Positions 10,782-18,277 of a DNA stretch of 64,000 nucleotides are shown piece by piece. Under the pieces are notes generated by a model. It ran no database searches. It was not told the origin of the DNA and worked only from the letters and a program-made list of their open reading frames with translations. This stretch comes from a virus. The translations under genes were made by a program, and so were the position numbers. Numbering within the stretch: position 1 is the stretch's first letter; every line of letters begins with the position of its first letter. The stretch lies in the IMG/VR virus record IMGVR_UViG_3300047323_000304, positions 129,898-193,897 of that record. The stretch is one strand, 5' to 3'.

Positions 10782-11378
10782 TTAATTCTCTTTTGTTTTC
10801 TTTACATTATAAACAAATTCTAAATAATGCTTTCTACAATAGCCTTTAGCATAATATTTTCTATTACAATTTTCAGTTATGCAACTATTGGCTTTCATAT
10901 ATAAAGGATCGCTGTATATATGAAACTTTCTATAATGACTTTCACAATATCCATTAGAATATGATTTGTCATTACATTCATCTACTTGACAAACTTTCGG
11001 ATATTGTATCCTTTTTTCTACTTGCGTTACTTCTCCATATCTTTGTATTTGTGCATAATGTCTTTTACAATATCCCTTTGCTATAACCAAATCATTGCAA
11101 CCATCCACCTTACAAATAGAAATATCTTTTAAGCCTAATTTAAGATCCTTTTCTATTTTCAGTTTTCTTTGTGAAGTCCAATGAGACTTACATAAATTTT
11201 TAGCATAAGTAATTTTATCACAGCCATCTACTGAACATATTGTTTTTTCTCTTCCTAATTCTCTTTCTGGAGTCAATCTACCATGACGTATTATTTGGGT
11301 ATGGTGTTTACTTCAATATCCATCATTTGTATGCCTTTCTTTATTACAACCTTCAACTTTACATGTATCATTTGTCAT
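10782..11378 (-). pseudogene. C-x4-C..C-x2-H repeat protein with an in-frame TGA at codon 22
   Basis: ATG at 11378 with GAGGTGA RBS; frame continues through TGA (11313-11315) into the track ORF; repeats CxVxGC...GYCxxH. Confidence 0.65.
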
Positions 11379-11620: not shown

Positions 11621-12142
11621 TTGATTTCTCCTCCTTTTTATCTTTTCTTATAAGCTAATTTAAAGTCACTGGCATAATGTCCTTAAATTAACCCACAATG
11701 GGCATTAGCATTTGTTTATTATTAATTTTATCACATCTTTCTATGTATTAGTTATTGTTTTGCAATTCGTCCAATCTTTTTAACATATAATCAATCTCTT
11801 CTTGGGTTATAACTGTAGAAGAATAATTTTCTTCATTTGTTTGATCGTTATTTGAAAATATATCTTTAAATTTGTTTTTTATATTGGCTAAAAACATTTT
11901 TATATCACCTCCCTTCAATAACTCTTTAAATCCTCAATTTAAATTAAACTTATTCTCTTTATTTTATTATTTTTAATGCTTCTTGAATTTCTATATCAAT
12001 ATAATCCGATTGCGTATGTATTCCTGTTAGCTTATTTAATATAATTAGACTTACTGCAAATATTATTACTTTTATCATTAAATTCACCTCTTTATTTTAG
12101 TTTATTTATAATTAATTTTATATTGTTTCTAAGTTTATTTTT

Positions 12143-12174
12143 AAAGAGTAGACAAAATTATATGTCTACTCTTT
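12143..12174 (-). terminator. terminator after the peptide gene
   Basis: 12-bp arms AAAGAGTAGACA/TGTCTACTCTTT. Confidence 0.65.
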
Positions 12175-12192
12175 CTTTGTCTTATGTATTTA

Positions 12193-12285
12193 TTACCCTC
12201 TAGTTGATGTTCCAGCCATTGCTACAACACTTGATAAAATCATAGTTGCAGTAATGATGAACATAATTAATGTTGCTTTTTTCAT
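12193..12285 (-). CDS. secreted signalling pro-peptide (AimP/Phr-like), MKKATLIMFIITATMILSSVVAMAGTSTRG
   Basis: 30-aa ORF absent from the track; GAGGTGA RBS; basic N-terminus, hydrophobic core, A-M-A cleavage-like site, polar tail GTSTRG. Confidence 0.75.
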   Translation of the reverse strand: MKKATLIMFIITATMILSSVVAMAGTSTRG

Positions 12286-12290
12286 TCGTT

Positions 12291-12368
12291 TCACCTCTTT
12301 CATATATGTATTATTAATATAGAGTTTTTTAATTATATCTATATTAACTTATACATATATGAAAGTGA
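12291..12368 (-). promoter_or_regulatory. long hairpin abutting the peptide RBS
   Basis: perfect 15-bp arms at 12297-12311/12351-12365 plus inner 9-bp arms at 12314-12322/12339-12347. Confidence 0.55.
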
Positions 12369-12373
12369 TTTTA

Positions 12374-13015
12374 CTATATAGCTTGTATTATATTACTTTG
12401 TTTTAATAACAATACCTTATTATATAATAATTCATTGACCGTTTTTATTTCTTTTATCAACTCATTAAATTTTTTTTCATATTCAGTATTGTTATTATGT
12501 AAAATGTCCTCAAGTATCTCAAGGACTATGCTAAAATTTTCTTTTGCTAAATTTAGATCAAACTTTGCTACTAACTTATTTAAATATCCATTATCATTTT
12601 TATCTTCAATATTTTCATAAATATGATAGCAAAATTCATAACCTTCTATTATTTCTTTTCTCGTCAATTCTTTCTTATGACTTTCAATATAATTAATTAA
12701 TACCCTAGCATATAAACAAGCATTATCCCCTTCTTTATAGCCTATTTCATTATCCATATCATTCTTTAATATTGATGTATAAAATTTTACTTGGCTCATT
12801 TCGTATACTTCTAATCCGTTTTTTCGTCCTATTTCTATCTCTGCTACAATCAAATTATGAAGTATCAATCTTCTTTCTTCTATATAAGTTAACATATCAT
12901 ATTCACTAAAATACATTTTTTTCAATTTATCTCTTGCCACTTCCACACCTTTATTATCCCAGTCATCAAAAATTTCTCCCAATACTCTTTTTTTTATAGT
13001 TTTCTTTTTTACCAT
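12374..13015 (-). CDS. all-helical TPR-like protein, candidate RRNPP-type peptide receptor without HTH
   Basis: amphipathic helical repeats carrying Asn (ILHNLIVAE, VLINY, FDLNLAKEN); directly upstream of the pro-peptide; ATG start at 13015 preferred. Confidence 0.5.
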   Translation of the reverse strand: MVKKKTIKKRVLGEIFDDWDNKGVEVARDKLKKMYFSEYDMLTYIEERRLILHNLIVAEIEIGRKNGLEVYEMSQVKFYTSILKNDMDNEIGYKEGDNACLYARVLINYIESHKKELTRKEIIEGYEFCYHIYENIEDKNDNGYLNKLVAKFDLNLAKENFSIVLEILEDILHNNNTEYEKKFNELIKEIKTVNELLYNKVLLLKQSNIIQAI

Positions 13016-13042
13016 CCTAAATTCACCCACTTCATAATTTAT

Positions 13043-13816
13043 TTACATAGCTATTTTTTCCTCTTTCTTTTCATACATTTTATAGTAATCTCTATAATTT
13101 AATTTATTATCTTCACAAAACTTTTGTAGTGACCATAAAAACGCTTCTCTTTGTTCAAGTAGATTCTTTATTAAACTTTTATTTTTTGCTTTACTTAAAG
13201 CCTTTTCGTATGTGTATATATCATCTAGTATTTCCTCTATATTATCTTGCATATATTTTGGTAATCTCTCTAATGGAGTCTTTGGTTTTAATCTACCATT
13301 TTGTATTCTAATTGCTTGCTCAACTTGCTCCATTATATCCTCAGTCACAGTACCTATTTTATATTTAAATTGTGTTTTTTTATCTATTGGACATAACGTT
13401 TCTGCTAAAATAACTGATTTTTTCTTTAATCCACATTCTTCAAAATTATCTATTTCCACATGTATAGGTAACTTTGATTTACCTAATTGAGACGTAATTG
13501 CACATCCACTAATATTTGGACTATATCGGTTGTTTAATTCGTTCGAGGTAACTAAAAAAGGTCTAATTCCACCCTGAATAGAATGTCTTCCTGCTCCCAA
13601 ATCAACTTGCCATATTTCATATTGTTTTATTTCTAAAGGTCTATTTACACTTTCCTTATAATTTATTTCCATAGTAACTTGAACTTTATCATTTTCAAGT
13701 TTATTACTATGTACATTAATTGTCATCTTATCGTTATTTAATTTATTATCCACTTTAACCTCTTGTTCTTTTAACATTTGTAAAGCGTTCATACTTTTTT
13801 CATTTAAATCTAACAC
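13043..13816 (-). CDS. mazF: PemK/MazF-family endoribonuclease with N- and C-terminal extensions
   Basis: EIWQVDLG..SIQGGIRPFLV.SN..N.YSP..AITSQ..KLPIHVEI..SVIL.E..IDK aligns by eye to B. subtilis NdoA with catalytic R and T retained. Confidence 0.85.
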   Translation of the reverse strand: MLDLNEKSMNALQMLKEQEVKVDNKLNNDKMTINVHSNKLENDKVQVTMEINYKESVNRPLEIKQYEIWQVDLGAGRHSIQGGIRPFLVTSNELNNRYSPNISGCAITSQLGKSKLPIHVEIDNFEECGLKKKSVILAETLCPIDKKTQFKYKIGTVTEDIMEQVEQAIRIQNGRLKPKTPLERLPKYMQDNIEEILDDIYTYEKALSKAKNKSLIKNLLEQREAFLWSLQKFCEDNKLNYRDYYKMYEKKEEKIAM

Positions 13817-14073
13817 AGGTTTACCTCCTATAATTTAACTAGTTATTATTTTTATTTTGTTTCATCTGATAATCTAATATTACCATGTCATTCCATTGTT
13901 GTCAATAACTTTTTAAATTATTTCTTTCATTATTTTTAATTTATTTGTTTCTTCCAATGAGTTAATAATACTATATATGGATTTATAAGTCAATACTTTT
14001 TGTTAAATATTTTTAATTCTTTTTATTTTATTATACACAGACAAAAAAGAAAGGGTTAGATATATTCTAAACC

Positions 14074-15321
14074 CTAGTTATTATATAATGTTTCATCTAA
14101 TTCTACTATTGTATTATCTTGGGTAGGTGGACTTGCTTCTTTCAATATGACTCCATCTGAATCGACTTTCATACCATCGACTTCTTGTATTTCTTTATTT
14201 TCAAACTTTTCTTCCCCATTAATAAATTCTTGATATCCAATTGCTTCAATAATGTCTTCAACTACCTGTTTTGAAGCTGGATCTTTTAAAGGTTCTAATA
14301 ATCTTCTAGCATTATTTCGATATACAATTTTATCTTTAGTTAATGATTGATAAAATTCTACTAAAGCAATCGTAATTTGTGGAGTATGAACTCCTTTAAA
14401 ATTTAATTGCACCCATTGAATATCATCAATAGATAATTTTCTTTCTTTTCTCATATCAAGTAAATAATCCATATATCTAGATTTTAATAAATCTCCAATT
14501 GCAATTCTTGGTACTTCCGCACCTTCACAAGCAAGGTATATTCTTGTATCAATTGTATGTCTACTAATAAGTAAACTACTATCATTTTGATTTTTCTTAG
14601 GTTTCTTTAATACATATCCAAAATCTTCTTCGTCAGTATCTAAACTAAGTTTATATTTATCTATCTGTTTAATAAACCTATCATCCACATCTAATATTCT
14701 TGGAGCTTTACCACTTTCTACAATACTTACTTGTTTCTTTTCATAATTTATATCATCCCATTGTAAACTTCTCATTTCAATTAATTCTTTACCTATTATT
14801 CCGTATCTAGCTAATAATAAAGGTATTGTATGACTTAGCTGTGACGTTTGTTCTATTTTAACTAATAGATTATAAAACTCTCCTAGTCCCCAAACTTTAT
14901 TAATTAATACGTTAACCATACTTTTAGTTGTGCTTTTTCTATCCATAGCTTTCACAGAATTATGTTTTATTTGTTTATTACTGACTCCCCAGTTTTTATA
15001 TTGACTAATGAAATTTATTATTTGATCTTTCATTGCAGGAGAATATTTAAATTTAGTTGCAATAACTTCATCAACTTCTATATTACTAAAAAACATTGCT
15101 TCTTTTCCTAATTGTATTTCATGCTCATTAATATGATTATTATAACATGACCACATGCTTTTTACTGTTACTTCATTATCATACAATTCATTTAAGAATT
15201 TAAGTTTATTGCCTTTTGTTTTATCATAATCTTTTAAAAAGTTTTCATAATCATGTTTTGATTCAGTAGTGAGAATTTTTGAATTATCAAGTTCATCAAC
15301 AATAAAATATTTATTCTTCAT
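14074..15321 (-). CDS. catalytically degenerate tyrosine-recombinase-fold protein, SPbeta YopR/MrpR-like repressor candidate
   Basis: LLLARYGI.GKEL..LQWDDI box-I-like segment lacking the catalytic Arg; no HxxR; size and position after the DGQHR-type gene. Confidence 0.6.
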   Translation of the reverse strand: MKNKYFIVDELDNSKILTTESKHDYENFLKDYDKTKGNKLKFLNELYDNEVTVKSMWSCYNNHINEHEIQLGKEAMFFSNIEVDEVIATKFKYSPAMKDQIINFISQYKNWGVSNKQIKHNSVKAMDRKSTTKSMVNVLINKVWGLGEFYNLLVKIEQTSQLSHTIPLLLARYGIIGKELIEMRSLQWDDINYEKKQVSIVESGKAPRILDVDDRFIKQIDKYKLSLDTDEEDFGYVLKKPKKNQNDSSLLISRHTIDTRIYLACEGAEVPRIAIGDLLKSRYMDYLLDMRKERKLSIDDIQWVQLNFKGVHTPQITIALVEFYQSLTKDKIVYRNNARRLLEPLKDPASKQVVEDIIEAIGYQEFINGEEKFENKEIQEVDGMKVDSDGVILKEASPPTQDNTIVELDETLYNN

Positions 15322-16732
15322 TAGAAACCACTTCCTTTGCTATTTTTTCAAAGAAATTATACACATTCTTTACACTAACACCTTTATTAATTAATTTCAA
15401 TGGAATTAGTTCTTCTTCAGTTAATGATATTATTTTATTAGAAATTTTCATTAATACATCATCATAATTTTTTAGTTCATGTAGTATATTCGCAACTGCT
15501 AAATAGCCTATGAAAATGTTAATATCGGCTAAATGTGTTTTATTTATTAAATTATGCATTGTTCCATACTTCATTATAAATGATTCAAACAAATCATCAA
15601 TTACCATTGCCATTTTCCCAGCAGTCATTCGTCTGTTTAATCTGTTGTTAACTTGAATATTAGTACACATTTTTTCTATTGTTTCACTCAAAATAGCTGA
15701 ATAAGTTAAATGCCCTTGGTTAGCAAAATAAGATTCATAACTTTTTGATACCTTCTCTTTCAATGTTTCTGATTGTTCAATTAATGCTTCAATAAACATA
15801 TTGTAATCACTATTTTCCAATTGACTTAACCAATCTGCTGAAGTGTCTGTTCTTTTAAATATTTGATTTACAATATTCTTACTACCTTGTAAATCTCTTA
15901 TAGTTAATTTCAAAGGAAATCCTTTTTTATCAAGTGTTTTGCCCATTTTATAAGCTTCTTCATAAGCTAAAACTCCAGCTAAGGTTCTATGCATACCATC
16001 TAATGGATTTACTACAGTATAATTATTAGAAGTTCTATCATAGTTTGGCGTAACTTCTACATCACAAATAGTCTCAGTACCATATTTTAGTGTTTCTCTT
16101 ACTTGTAAAACATTTTTAGAATTCTCTTGATTTAAAACATTATATATTAACATATCTTCTTCATATGTTCCAGCAATAATAGATTTTGCTATTTCCATTT
16201 TAGCTTTATCATTTATTGAATAAGTTTCAAAGGTTATTTTTTTATCTCCAGTTCCAATAGTTTGATAAACTGGCTCTCTTTGTGCTTCAAAATTATAGAT
16301 TAATAATGTGTTACTATACCAATTATATATGTCAGATATTGGAGCGTAGCCCAAGTAATTATAATCATCAATTTTTATTGCATCTTTTATGAATATAGAA
16401 TTGACTTCTTTTATTTCTTTAACTGCACTATCATATCTAACTAATACGTCATCAGAGAACCATTTGTTAATATCTAATATCTCCATATCAGGAAGTCCAT
16501 CATGTGCTCCATCAACAAAAGCAATTTTTTCATATTCAGATAAGGTTTGCCATTGCTTTTCGCCACCAAATAACGAAGACATTAATCTTATGTTAAGATT
16601 CTTTTCTCTAAATTTCTTAGTAATTGCATCTGAGAGTTTTTTATTTTTATATTGTTCTTTTAATATTTCATTTATAACCTCGAATTGTTTTTCTTCAGGT
16701 ACTAAGTCTTTTATATTTTTAATTTCATTCAT
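15311..16732 (-). CDS. DGQHR/ParB-like domain protein, SPbeta YopQ-like
   Basis: NPLDGMHRTLA motif; 473 aa; overlaps the start of the YopR-like gene. Confidence 0.6.
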   Translation of the reverse strand: MNEIKNIKDLVPEEKQFEVINEILKEQYKNKKLSDAITKKFREKNLNIRLMSSLFGGEKQWQTLSEYEKIAFVDGAHDGLPDMEILDINKWFSDDVLVRYDSAVKEIKEVNSIFIKDAIKIDDYNYLGYAPISDIYNWYSNTLLIYNFEAQREPVYQTIGTGDKKITFETYSINDKAKMEIAKSIIAGTYEEDMLIYNVLNQENSKNVLQVRETLKYGTETICDVEVTPNYDRTSNNYTVVNPLDGMHRTLAGVLAYEEAYKMGKTLDKKGFPLKLTIRDLQGSKNIVNQIFKRTDTSADWLSQLENSDYNMFIEALIEQSETLKEKVSKSYESYFANQGHLTYSAILSETIEKMCTNIQVNNRLNRRMTAGKMAMVIDDLFESFIMKYGTMHNLINKTHLADINIFIGYLAVANILHELKNYDDVLMKISNKIISLTEEELIPLKLINKGVSVKNVYNFFEKIAKEVVSNEE

Positions 16733-17369: not shown

Positions 17370-17588
17370 TTGAAAATTGCACAAATGGTTAAAATGAAAC
17401 TACACATGTTGCTTGCTGAACATGGCATCACACAAAAACAACTATCTACTGCTACAGGTATACGACAAGGAACTATAAGTTCATACGCATCAAATAATTT
17501 TAAGCATCTAGTAAGAAATCATATTAATATACTTTGTACATATTTTAACTGTGATGTTTCAGACTTAATACAATTTAAGAAAGATTAA
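17370..17588 (+). CDS. XRE/Cro-like HTH regulator
   Basis: LLAEHGITQKQLSTATGIRQGTISSY...LCTYFNCDVSDLI. Confidence 0.85.
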   Translation: MKIAQMVKMKLHMLLAEHGITQKQLSTATGIRQGTISSYASNNFKHLVRNHINILCTYFNCDVSDLIQFKKD

Positions 17589-17896: not shown

Positions 17897-18277
17897 ATGT
17901 ACATACGTGCATTTTTTGTCGAAAGAAGGGTGATAATTATAAACAAAAGAATATTAAAAGAACCAGAGCGTGGACAATATGAAATACTTTTTAAACATTT
18001 TAGAAATTTTAGACATATGACACAAGAAGAACTGGCTTTTTTAGTTAAAATTGCTCCTAGTTATCTTTCAATGTTTGAACAGAATAATACTACTAGAACT
18101 CGTTCTCCTAAATTGAATTTAATTAGAGATGTTGCTTTTGCCCTGAATGTTTGTCCAAATGATATAATATATTTTCCTTGCAAAACCTGTGAAATGAAGG
18201 ATAGTTGTGTAAGAAAAAAACAGGTCATTGATGATGACCATAACTTTGAAAATATTATTAATTACTACCTTGAATAA
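17897..18277 (+). CDS. XRE-family HTH regulator with a C-terminal Cys cluster
   Basis: RHMTQEELAFLV.IAPSYLSMFEQ..SPKLNLIRDVAFALNVCP; CKTC..C. Confidence 0.8.
   Translation: MYIRAFFVERRVIIINKRILKEPERGQYEILFKHFRNFRHMTQEELAFLVKIAPSYLSMFEQNNTTRTRSPKLNLIRDVAFALNVCPNDIIYFPCKTCEMKDSCVRKKQVIDDDHNFENIINYYLE

Follow-up and report, generated by a model that had tools for sequence, protein, structure and literature searches.

A candidate peptide-communication cassette with a tailed MazF and a TPR-fold protein beside the SPbeta-type repressor genes of a large phage

Organisation of the cassette and its surroundings

We analysed the final 64 kb (hereafter the window, to which all coordinates refer unless another locus is named) of a 193,897-bp virus record from IMG/VR (IMGVR_UViG_3300047323_000304) with a G+C content of 26% and an estimated completeness of 78% (CheckV). 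Between positions 13,905 and 12,143 the minus strand carries a promoter-like site, a mazF toxin gene, a gene for a protein with a tetratricopeptide repeat (TPR) fold, an open reading frame (ORF) of 30 aa and a terminator hairpin (Table 1), and this unit, referred to below as the cassette, is likely to be a peptide-communication system. A first-pass annotation had listed a TTGACA-N17-TAATAT promoter, a MazF with a helical tail and no MazE, an all-helical protein of approx. 213 aa devoid of a helix-turn-helix (HTH), and an overlooked 30-aa ORF with a strong ribosome-binding site and a terminator. All of these elements were located on the minus strand; the helical protein was predicted to form ten helices, with no significant HTH, and the small ORF is not a product of chance, since 13 of 14 distinct loci have an equivalent ORF after the homologous gene. 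The 'Asn-bearing repeats' of the same annotation do contain invariant Asn, Tyr and Arg residues, but are better named TPR-like helix pairs.

The gaps between mazF and the TPR gene and between the TPR gene and the peptide gene are 27 and 88 nt in the window. A further promoter match, TTGACT-N17-TATTAT, was detected at 13993-13965. As the preceding MrpR-like gene closes with a bulged hairpin and a T-run just before the cassette promoter, the three genes appear to form a transcription unit of their own, and in related loci a homologous GAGTAGACA...TGTCTACTC hairpin is found after the peptide gene.

The 14 distinct loci were gathered from metagenomes and viral contigs, some of the contigs being 116–249 kb in length. 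In all of them the TPR gene is followed by a small ORF or by the end of the contig. Wherever upstream sequence exists, the order is constant: a divergent XRE gene, a small ORF, a YopQ-like gene, an MrpR/YopR-like gene, the tailed mazF and the TPR gene. This order is preserved for members of the TPR family down to 25–30% identity, and a search started from the MazF side returned three viral contigs, all of which possess the TPR and peptide genes.

The two genes directly upstream of mazF, present in every locus with upstream sequence, bear out the suspected connection with phage SPbeta and its relatives. They encode a DGxHR protein and, after it, an MrpR-like repressor with a recombinase fold, the arrangement of the SPbeta-type lysogeny module (SroE/YopQ and SroF/MrpR/YopR). 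The pair in the window matched phrog_5732 (E 3.4e-25), phrog_5830 (E 7e-13) and PF22822 MrpR_N_CB (E 2.7e-5), and MrpR_C_cat was matched in homologous loci, where the YopQ-like proteins have approx. 465 aa and the MrpR/YopR-like proteins 350–436 aa. In pairwise comparisons the YopQ-like protein of the window aligned with SPbeta YopQ (E 6e-6), and the proteins of phage c-st were matched with E 6e-4 (YopQ) and E 3e-9 (YopR); the direct BLASTP comparison of the MrpR/YopR-like protein of the window with SPbeta YopR was not significant. Divergent genes for XRE-type HTH proteins flank yopQ-yopR in the window, and HTH_26/HTH_3 genes were found upstream of yopQ-yopR in related loci; these divergent genes probably form the second arm of the lysis-lysogeny switch.

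The source of the record is probably a temperate, SPbeta-like-regulated jumbo phage of a clostridial host. Patterns for the TPR protein and MazF had no match in 185,579 species genomes, and no cultured host is known; DNA-level searches of plasmids and phages for the cassette gave empty or trivial results.

Table 1. Features of the cassette and of neighbouring regions in the window
Feature	Position	Strand	Remarks
Putative sigma-70-type promoter-like site	13877-13905	-	TTGACA-N17-TAATAT with TG before the -10 element; 10/12 in a consensus scan
MazF/PemK endoribonuclease gene, 257 aa	13043-13816	-	GTG start 7 nt past AGGAGG; stop codon at 13043-13045
PemK core of MazF, aa 62-175	13292-13633	-	
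C-terminal tail of MazF, aa 176-257 (82 aa)	13046-13291	-	Helical hairpin; candidate adaptor for the TPR protein
TPR-fold protein, 213 aa	12374-13015	-	Candidate cytoplasmic peptide receptor ('headless Rap'); AlphaFold2 fold
Conserved two-stem RNA hairpin	12293-12369	-	Between TPR stop and peptide start; covariation
Shine-Dalgarno sequence of the pro-peptide gene	12292-12297	-	GAGGTG, from sequence; kept with spacer and ATG in ten loci
Pro-peptide gene, 30 aa	12193-12285	-	Start 6 nt past GAGGTG; predicted Sec-type signal peptide (KK, hydrophobic core, A-M-A), then predicted hexapeptide GTSTRG
Codons for GTSTRG	12196-12213	-	
Terminator-like hairpin	12143-12174	-	12-bp stem; ends the operon
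SPbeta-type lysogeny pair	14074-16732	-	YopQ/SroE-like DGxHR protein (15311-16732); MrpR/YopR/SroF-like recombinase-fold protein (14074-15321)
XRE-type HTH genes	17370-17588; 17897-18277	+	Divergent, flanking yopQ-yopR
Conserved ORF past the terminator	11959-12087	-	One hydrophobic helix
Gene for a Cys-rich 164-aa protein	10782-11276	-	

The pro-peptide and its candidate receptor

The ORF that follows the TPR gene has 30 aa in the window and 30–40 aa across 13 loci, with a signal-peptide-like N-terminus in each; the contig of the fourteenth locus stops 81 nt past the TPR gene. By inspection, the products in 11 loci consist of a K/R-rich N-region, a hydrophobic core of 15–20 residues and (A/V/C)-x-A at positions -3/-1, after which exactly six residues follow, xxxxR(G/S), with RG in 10 loci and RS in one. 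The hexapeptides are GTSTRG, TTSSRG, GTTSRG, GSIGRG, TGSSRG, GTSPRG, GTMGRG, SGSPRG, TGSPRG, SGSPRS and ISSGRG. At the level of sequence, a constant cleavage rule and a terminal R-G combined with four variable leading residues follows the pattern known from arbitrium and Phr pheromones. Whether the peptide ORF is conserved beside homologues had been named as decisive in the first-pass annotation, and the ORF is indeed kept in the 13 loci and diversifies like a pheromone.

More distant cassettes keep the order YopQ, MrpR, tailed MazF, TPR with other types of peptide (L017, 4681-4797; L023, 5318-5410): one is a signal peptide with a 17-residue tail and the other ends in GGGWG, and the family of TPR receptors may therefore have several pheromone classes.

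Diversification is also seen between closely related phages. Loci L003 and L004 share 98% identity in YopQ, 88% in MrpR and 91% in MazF, but only 67% in the TPR protein, and their predicted peptides are TTSSRG and GTTSRG; in L006 and L010 the MazF core is 100% identical, whereas the TPR proteins are 71% identical and the peptides are GSIGRG and GTMGRG. Near-identical phages with unlike peptides and diverged candidate receptors suggest a pherotype-like diversification. Across the loci, the distance between TPR proteins correlates weakly with the Hamming distance between peptides (rho 0.40, Mantel p 0.014), a value confounded by phylogeny, and one TPR position changes from Glu to Tyr/Ile exactly where position 3 of the peptide changes from Ser/Thr to Ile/Met. 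Given the shared ancestry of the loci, this covariation is suggestive only.

The ORF of the TPR protein spans 12374-13030 (218 aa); comparison with homologues puts the start at the ATG at 13015, hence a product of 213 aa. From 13 aligned family members, AlphaFold2 modelled ten helices arranged in pairs (predicted local distance difference test (pLDDT) 91, predicted TM-score (pTM) 0.86). Invariant residues of the protein include W24, D25, R33, R54, N59, N113, Y114, N158, H178 and N179. Foldseek against the PDB returned generic TPR proteins only (E >= 7e-3), and an exhaustive structural scan gave Z-scores of approx. 12.5 for several TPR proteins, RapI among them. In a second-look structural alignment the Rap protein of phage phi3T (8rsv_A) ranked first, with a Z-score of 13.4 over 196 residues placed on Rap 132–372, followed by RapF (12.9), RapI (12.8), the Rap of pLS20 (12.3), NprR (12.2) and PlcR (12.1); the peptide-binding domains of Rap, NprR and PlcR align along the whole protein. 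The TPR-only folds and the top rank of Rap indicate that the modelled protein is a TPR solenoid sized like the Rap peptide-binding domain, without an HTH or the Rap N-terminal domain.

Sequence searches with the same protein were negative: there was no match in Pfam, PHROG, NCBIfam, PADLOC or PDB, no TPR or RRNPP Pfam family on it at E<=1, and none for PF13424 in the genome. The family profile gave an hhalign probability of 0.3 with SPbeta AimR, tblastn against phages found nothing, and no AimR-like ORF is present in the record. The RRNPP-like receptor of the first-pass annotation can accordingly be retained as to its fold, which is TPR-like with RRNPP/Rap receptors heading the structural list, but not as to sequence membership in RRNPP or AimR families, and the protein is shorter than validated receptors. 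A lead to DUF6707 from a feature search was dropped, as its hidden Markov model (HMM) had no match and the sole paper to mention this domain concerns Salmonella type VI secretion system effectors. The family comprises 12 close homologues (41–70% identity) and 46 representative clusters, nearly all of approx. 170–230 aa, plus a few shorter fragments. Its most distant member examined (L018, 161-751; GCA_014836335.1, JACSRA010000056.1; profile E 2e-6) is located outside any phage lysogeny module, on a contig that also carries genes for a relaxase and MobC and ends 160 nt upstream.

The gap between the TPR and peptide genes is occupied by a conserved two-stem hairpin, in which RNAalifold found 29 pairs, 18 of them with compensatory changes. 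Its alignment cells were paired in 91.7% of cases, against 82.0% in shuffles (0 of 500 as high), and slid controls gave no more than 63%. Frequent G-U pairs on the sense strand favour an RNA structure over a DNA operator. The 3' arm pairs with GAAAGAG(G) of the Shine-Dalgarno region of the peptide gene, and since this arm covers the Shine-Dalgarno sequence, translation of the peptide from the operon transcript is probably regulated; the hairpin would thus probably provide post-transcriptional control of peptide production. The alternative that the intergenic palindrome is a repeated operator was rejected, as its arm is not enriched elsewhere in the window (5 matches where 1.4 were expected, a number also reached by 3 of 100 shuffles). 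UACAU is found inside the 3' arm (12299-12311 in the window) of 7 of 10 loci, just before the peptide Shine-Dalgarno sequence. If MazF cuts UACAU, opening of the stem could expose a cleavage site beside the peptide start, although in such AT-rich sequence the pentamer likely occurs there by chance.

The tailed MazF and the UACAU footprint

The PemK core of the toxin was matched by PF02452 (E 2.4e-20 over aa 64–171), by the 'MazF-like growth inhibitor' families phrog_1936 and phrog_35650 (E 3e-21 and 1e-19) and by Bacillus subtilis EndoA (1ne8; E 1.7e-18), with R85 (in GGIRP) and T108 aligned to R25 and T48 of EndoA; structurally, it matched MazF-mt1 (Z 18.1) and Staphylococcus aureus MazF (Z 17.3). 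R85 and T108/S109 are invariant in 11 orthologue sequences, and with the catalytic Arg and Thr so conserved the enzyme is probably active. There is no second PemK in the 194-kb record, no MazE gene adjacent to mazF and no match to PF04014 across the 193,897 bp, and no MazE-type (AbrB or ribbon-helix-helix (RHH)) ORF flanks mazF in any locus.

The core is extended on both sides. A tblastn alignment spanning both genes of the NatCom gut phages had raised the idea that the N-terminal extension (aa 1–59) is a fused antitoxin akin to the product of the gene upstream of their mazF. This was rejected (BLASTP E 1.3), because the extension is disordered, varies in length among orthologues and is absent in L015. 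The C-terminal tail was modelled as helices 187–209, 213–236 and 241–247 (AlphaFold2, pLDDT approx. 85–90), ends in a conserved hydrophobic-A/V/T-hydrophobic C-terminus and occurs fused to PemK cores only.

The history of the tail follows that of the TPR protein and not that of the core. In 13 loci, TPR identity correlated with MazF-tail identity (Spearman 0.86, Mantel p 2e-4), versus 0.12 (p 0.21) for MazF-core identity. Five clusters were obtained for the tail, and identical ones for the TPR protein, but the RNase core groups differently, into three; one tail/TPR clade holds three core types and two more tail/TPR pairs bear unlike cores. These discordant clusters imply that the core was swapped at least 3–4 times, with tail, receptor and peptide moving together. 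A module boundary thus appears to lie inside the mazF gene, which, judged from sequence comparison, is the best available argument for the tail working with the TPR protein.

UACAU is the site cut by the MazF enzymes of B. subtilis, S. aureus and Clostridioides difficile. In phi3T, lysogeny is favoured by the activity of host MazF, which is also the route by which arbitrium acts (PMC10769878), and MazF was reported to degrade most phage mRNAs while sparing the sroF operon (bioRxiv 10.1101/2025.11.27.690993); we therefore counted UACAU on the sense strand. Across 10 loci its density was 0.51 per kb in yopQ and yopR, 2.16 in mazF and the TPR gene and 2.50 in downstream genes, i.e., the pentamer is approx. 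five-fold scarcer in the repressor genes only, and its reverse complement is not depleted. In nine non-redundant loci, 13 occurrences were observed in yopQ-yopR against 26.4 +/- 4.0 in synonymous-codon shuffles (minimum of 300 shuffles, 17), a depletion that is significant in the pooled loci only. UACAU shows the largest fold depletion among 481 pentamers, with the overlapping ACAUA and CAUAA next. Densities in yopQ-yopR are also low in SPbeta (L020, 11875-14258; 0.84 per kb) and c-st (0.80 per kb). The repressor operon thus appears to be under selection to escape a UACAU-specific RNase, which fits a lysogeny-promoting MazF. The scarcity in all ten clostridial-type loci, SPbeta and c-st could also be a general signature of MazF escape in SPbeta-type repressor operons.

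A peptide-controlled MazF and the alternatives

The following sequence of events would account for these observations. The 30-aa pre-peptide would be exported and, as its sequence suggests, cut after A-x-A to free a hexapeptide xxxxRG, here GTSTRG. After re-import the hexapeptide would be bound by the cytoplasmic TPR protein, whose modelled fold corresponds to the peptide-binding domain of Rap-type receptors. Having no output domain, such a receptor would act by protein-protein contact, and its partner would most likely be the C-terminal tail of the co-transcribed MazF. Free of peptide, it would restrain MazF like an antitoxin and, once bound to peptide, would release it, the sign being borrowed from the logic of phi3T. 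Active MazF would then cut UACAU-containing mRNAs of phage and host, if its specificity is as supposed, and spare the UACAU-poor yopQ-yopR, so that at high phage density infection would be pushed towards lysogeny; the hairpin over the ribosome-binding site of the peptide gene may add control of signal production.

To this explanation as a whole, i.e., a self-contained peptide cassette in which a TPR receptor restrains MazF, with a lysogeny bias and hairpin control, we would give roughly even odds. For a receptor that itself gates MazF the evidence is indirect: the genes are co-transcribed, their synteny is strict, and tail and TPR protein have a common history. Peptide-controlled restraint through the tail, although the most economical output for a receptor without an output domain, is a possibility that falls somewhat short of even. 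Only tentatively do we propose the version in which a pheromone gates a phage-borne MazF via its tail, the UACAU-poor repressor operon is spared, the decision is taken post-transcriptionally without a transcription-factor receptor, and the core is a swappable cartridge.

Several observations speak against the explanation as a whole. The loci are related to one another and are not independent samples; the TPR protein has no sequence-level homology to any RRNPP family, its structural likeness to Rap lies within one Z unit of that to kinesin-light-chain-type and generic TPR proteins, and the signal-peptide cleavage site was assigned by eye. The shared history of tail and TPR protein could reflect a recombination block or linkage rather than physical contact. 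Between L003 and L004 the tail is 92% identical and the TPR protein 67%, so the latter can diverge without the tail, and phage c-st has a tailed MazF with neither TPR nor peptide gene, an example of the tail occurring without the receptor. As to the footprint, the UACAU specificity of the phage MazF is borrowed by analogy from the three bacterial enzymes, approx. half of the depletion relative to neighbouring genes is due to amino-acid and codon composition, and the depletion is not significant in the window alone or within the single 194-kb genome (yopR, 0 against 2.4 expected; yopQ, 1 against 2.8). A co-fold of two copies of MazF (residues 55–257) with the TPR protein scored 0.00 and was counted neither way.

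The same divergence of the TPR protein between L003 and L004, where MazF stays 91% identical, and the retention of a tailed MazF without TPR in c-st would also fit a communication pair that does not address MazF. In that case the receptor would have another partner, for instance YopQ, the MrpR/YopR repressor, a small antirepressor or a host regulator like those of the Spo0A pathway, and MazF would be an independent co-transcribed gene, e.g., for host shut-off, superinfection defence or addiction. Rap receptors, which also lack an HTH, act on response regulators, and phage Rap-Phr systems were proposed to hijack sporulation (bioRxiv 10.1101/2021.07.15.452460). However, the TPR protein lacks the N-terminal helical domain with which Rap proteins engage their targets, it tracks the MazF tail, and wherever the sequence extends far enough the MazF, TPR and peptide genes are neighbours. 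Nor does it track YopQ or MrpR, which between the window and L003 are 34% and 29% identical, against 69% for the TPR protein. We regard a target other than MazF as unlikely, though deserving of attention.

An ordinary toxin-antitoxin pair, with the TPR protein as a non-canonical downstream antitoxin and the small ORF encoding a membrane-active or secreted peptide without signalling function (e.g., a small membrane protein or a type I-toxin-like peptide), would meet the need for some antitoxin that the absence of MazE creates. A toxin gene followed after 27 nt by that of its partner would be compatible with such a pair, and phage genomes commonly encode small hydrophobic peptides. Nevertheless, the evolution of the hydrophobic part is that of a signal peptide, A-x-A being kept at -3/-1, the six-residue tail is both conserved and diversifying, as in pheromones, TPR protein and hexapeptide change jointly between near-identical phages, and a TPR solenoid that best matches peptide receptors would be an unusual antitoxin, all of which makes this reading improbable. 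Very improbable is a defence or superinfection-exclusion module in which the TPR protein senses another phage and triggers MazF with no role in the phage's own lysis-lysogeny decision: abortive infection does involve MazEF and other toxin-antitoxin systems, the defence genes of prophages are often located close to the immunity region and TPR domains are sensors in several defence systems, but no PADLOC model matched any cassette protein, a secreted, diversifying peptide is no feature of known sensor-type defence systems, and the specific avoidance of UACAU in the phage's repressor operon suggests that MazF acts on transcripts of that same phage.

Peptide control of MazF may also be viewed against known systems. 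The RRNPP_detector signature includes a pro-peptide of 10–100 aa secreted via Sec, a receptor of 250–500 aa encoded directly next to it and matches to TPR HMMs, validated receptors having 285–473 aa (PMC10075063). The 30-aa peptide falls within this range and receptor and peptide genes are adjacent in 13 of 14 loci, whereas the receptor, at 213 aa, is below any validated one, and its TPR nature is seen at the fold level (Z 12–13.4) but not at the HMM level. With a receptor under 250 aa and no TPR HMM match, the cassette would not be reported by RRNPP_detector.

With arbitrium the cassette shares a phage-encoded, predicted secreted pre-peptide with a hexapeptide of variable N-terminal and conserved C-terminal residues, a TPR-fold protein encoded directly upstream of it, the vicinity of yopQ-yopR (sroE-sroF) repressor genes, pherotype-like diversification among close phages and a presumed output via MazF activity, through which arbitrium runs in phi3T (PMC10769878). 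These are resemblances of design, not homology. AimR has 386 aa with an N-terminal HTH, whereas the candidate receptor has 213 aa without an HTH or other DNA-binding domain; aimX lies downstream of aimP, whereas the cassette has a terminator directly after the peptide gene and an unrelated next ORF. Its MazF is phage-encoded with a unique tail, whereas arbitrium uses host MazEF; the cassette lies downstream, not upstream, of yopQ-yopR, and its predicted hexapeptide begins immediately after the signal-peptidase site, without an intervening pro-segment. The first-pass annotation, which saw the arbitrium logic compressed into one operon, was therefore right as to the analogy, but AimR-family sequence is lacking.

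Rap-Phr systems (phi3T Rap, PDB 8rsv; pLS20 Rap) provide the best structural match and likewise have no DNA-binding domain, so that a Rap-like receptor must work through contact with another protein; their peptide genes lie just downstream of the receptor gene and carry Sec-type export signals, as is predicted here. The candidate receptor differs in lacking the N-terminal three-helix domain that contacts Spo0F/ComA (it aligns to Rap residues approx. 130–372), is approx. 160 aa shorter, has no Rap or TPR HMM match, and its presumed partner is a toxin instead of a response regulator. The cassette would be arbitrium- and Rap-Phr-like in the way it works, but is not a sequence-level member of either.

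Compared with the MazEF pair of B. subtilis (EndoA/EndoAI), the toxin has a canonical MazF core with catalytic Arg and Thr kept, but adds a disordered N-terminus of approx. 60 aa and the helical tail of 82 aa, its neighbour is a TPR protein and not an RHH/AbrB antitoxin, and its core is exchanged among lineages while tail and TPR protein stay together. Extracellular death factor (EDF) peptides (NNWNN; RGQQNE in B. subtilis) were reported to modulate MazF (PMC3668371), and the likeness is one of concept only, a short extracellular peptide tuning MazF: EDF, which originates from a housekeeping protein, reportedly binds to MazF itself, whereas the cassette encodes a dedicated peptide gene and a TPR receptor. 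Phage c-st (L001, 3977-8171) encodes, near YopQ-like and YopR-like genes, the tailed MazF CST027, which is 29% identical across core and tail, but in the order mazF, CST028, yopQ, yopR and with no peptide ORF after CST028. The possibility that CST028 (218 aa) is a diverged TPR homologue was rejected (BLASTP E 1.6, hhalign probability 0.2); it may be an alternative partner for the same type of MazF tail.

Literature searches on MazF and arbitrium, on phage MazF and on TPR proteins with antitoxins and pheromones revealed no description of such a cassette, and the databases searched contained no matching system. The minimal receptor, the phage-borne tailed MazF as presumptive output and the swappable toxin core are therefore without precedent in the sources searched. 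Peptide communication of phages is so far established mainly in Bacillus phages (arbitrium and phage Rap-Phr), and the route from signal to lysis-lysogeny machinery was only lately traced to host MazF in phi3T. The cassette would extend such communication to large uncultured clostridial-type phages, through a class of receptors (<250 aa, no TPR HMM match) that is invisible to current detectors; some phages would then carry the whole circuit of signal, receptor and RNase effector. Eleven distinct natural hexapeptides with their candidate receptors are available for specificity studies, and a peptide-switchable RNase would be a compact part for synthetic biology.

Beyond the cassette terminator, most loci possess a conserved ORF of 39–42 aa encoding a single hydrophobic helix with the C-terminal motif ..E(A/E)LKIIK (L025, 4699-4818; 39-aa genes in L003, L004, L006, L009, L010 and L011; Table 1 for the window). 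Further downstream, the 164-aa protein consists of three repeated Cys-rich modules and matches the HNH-endonuclease-associated PHROG 5351 (E 6e-35) and DUF5763, with no obvious link to the cassette.

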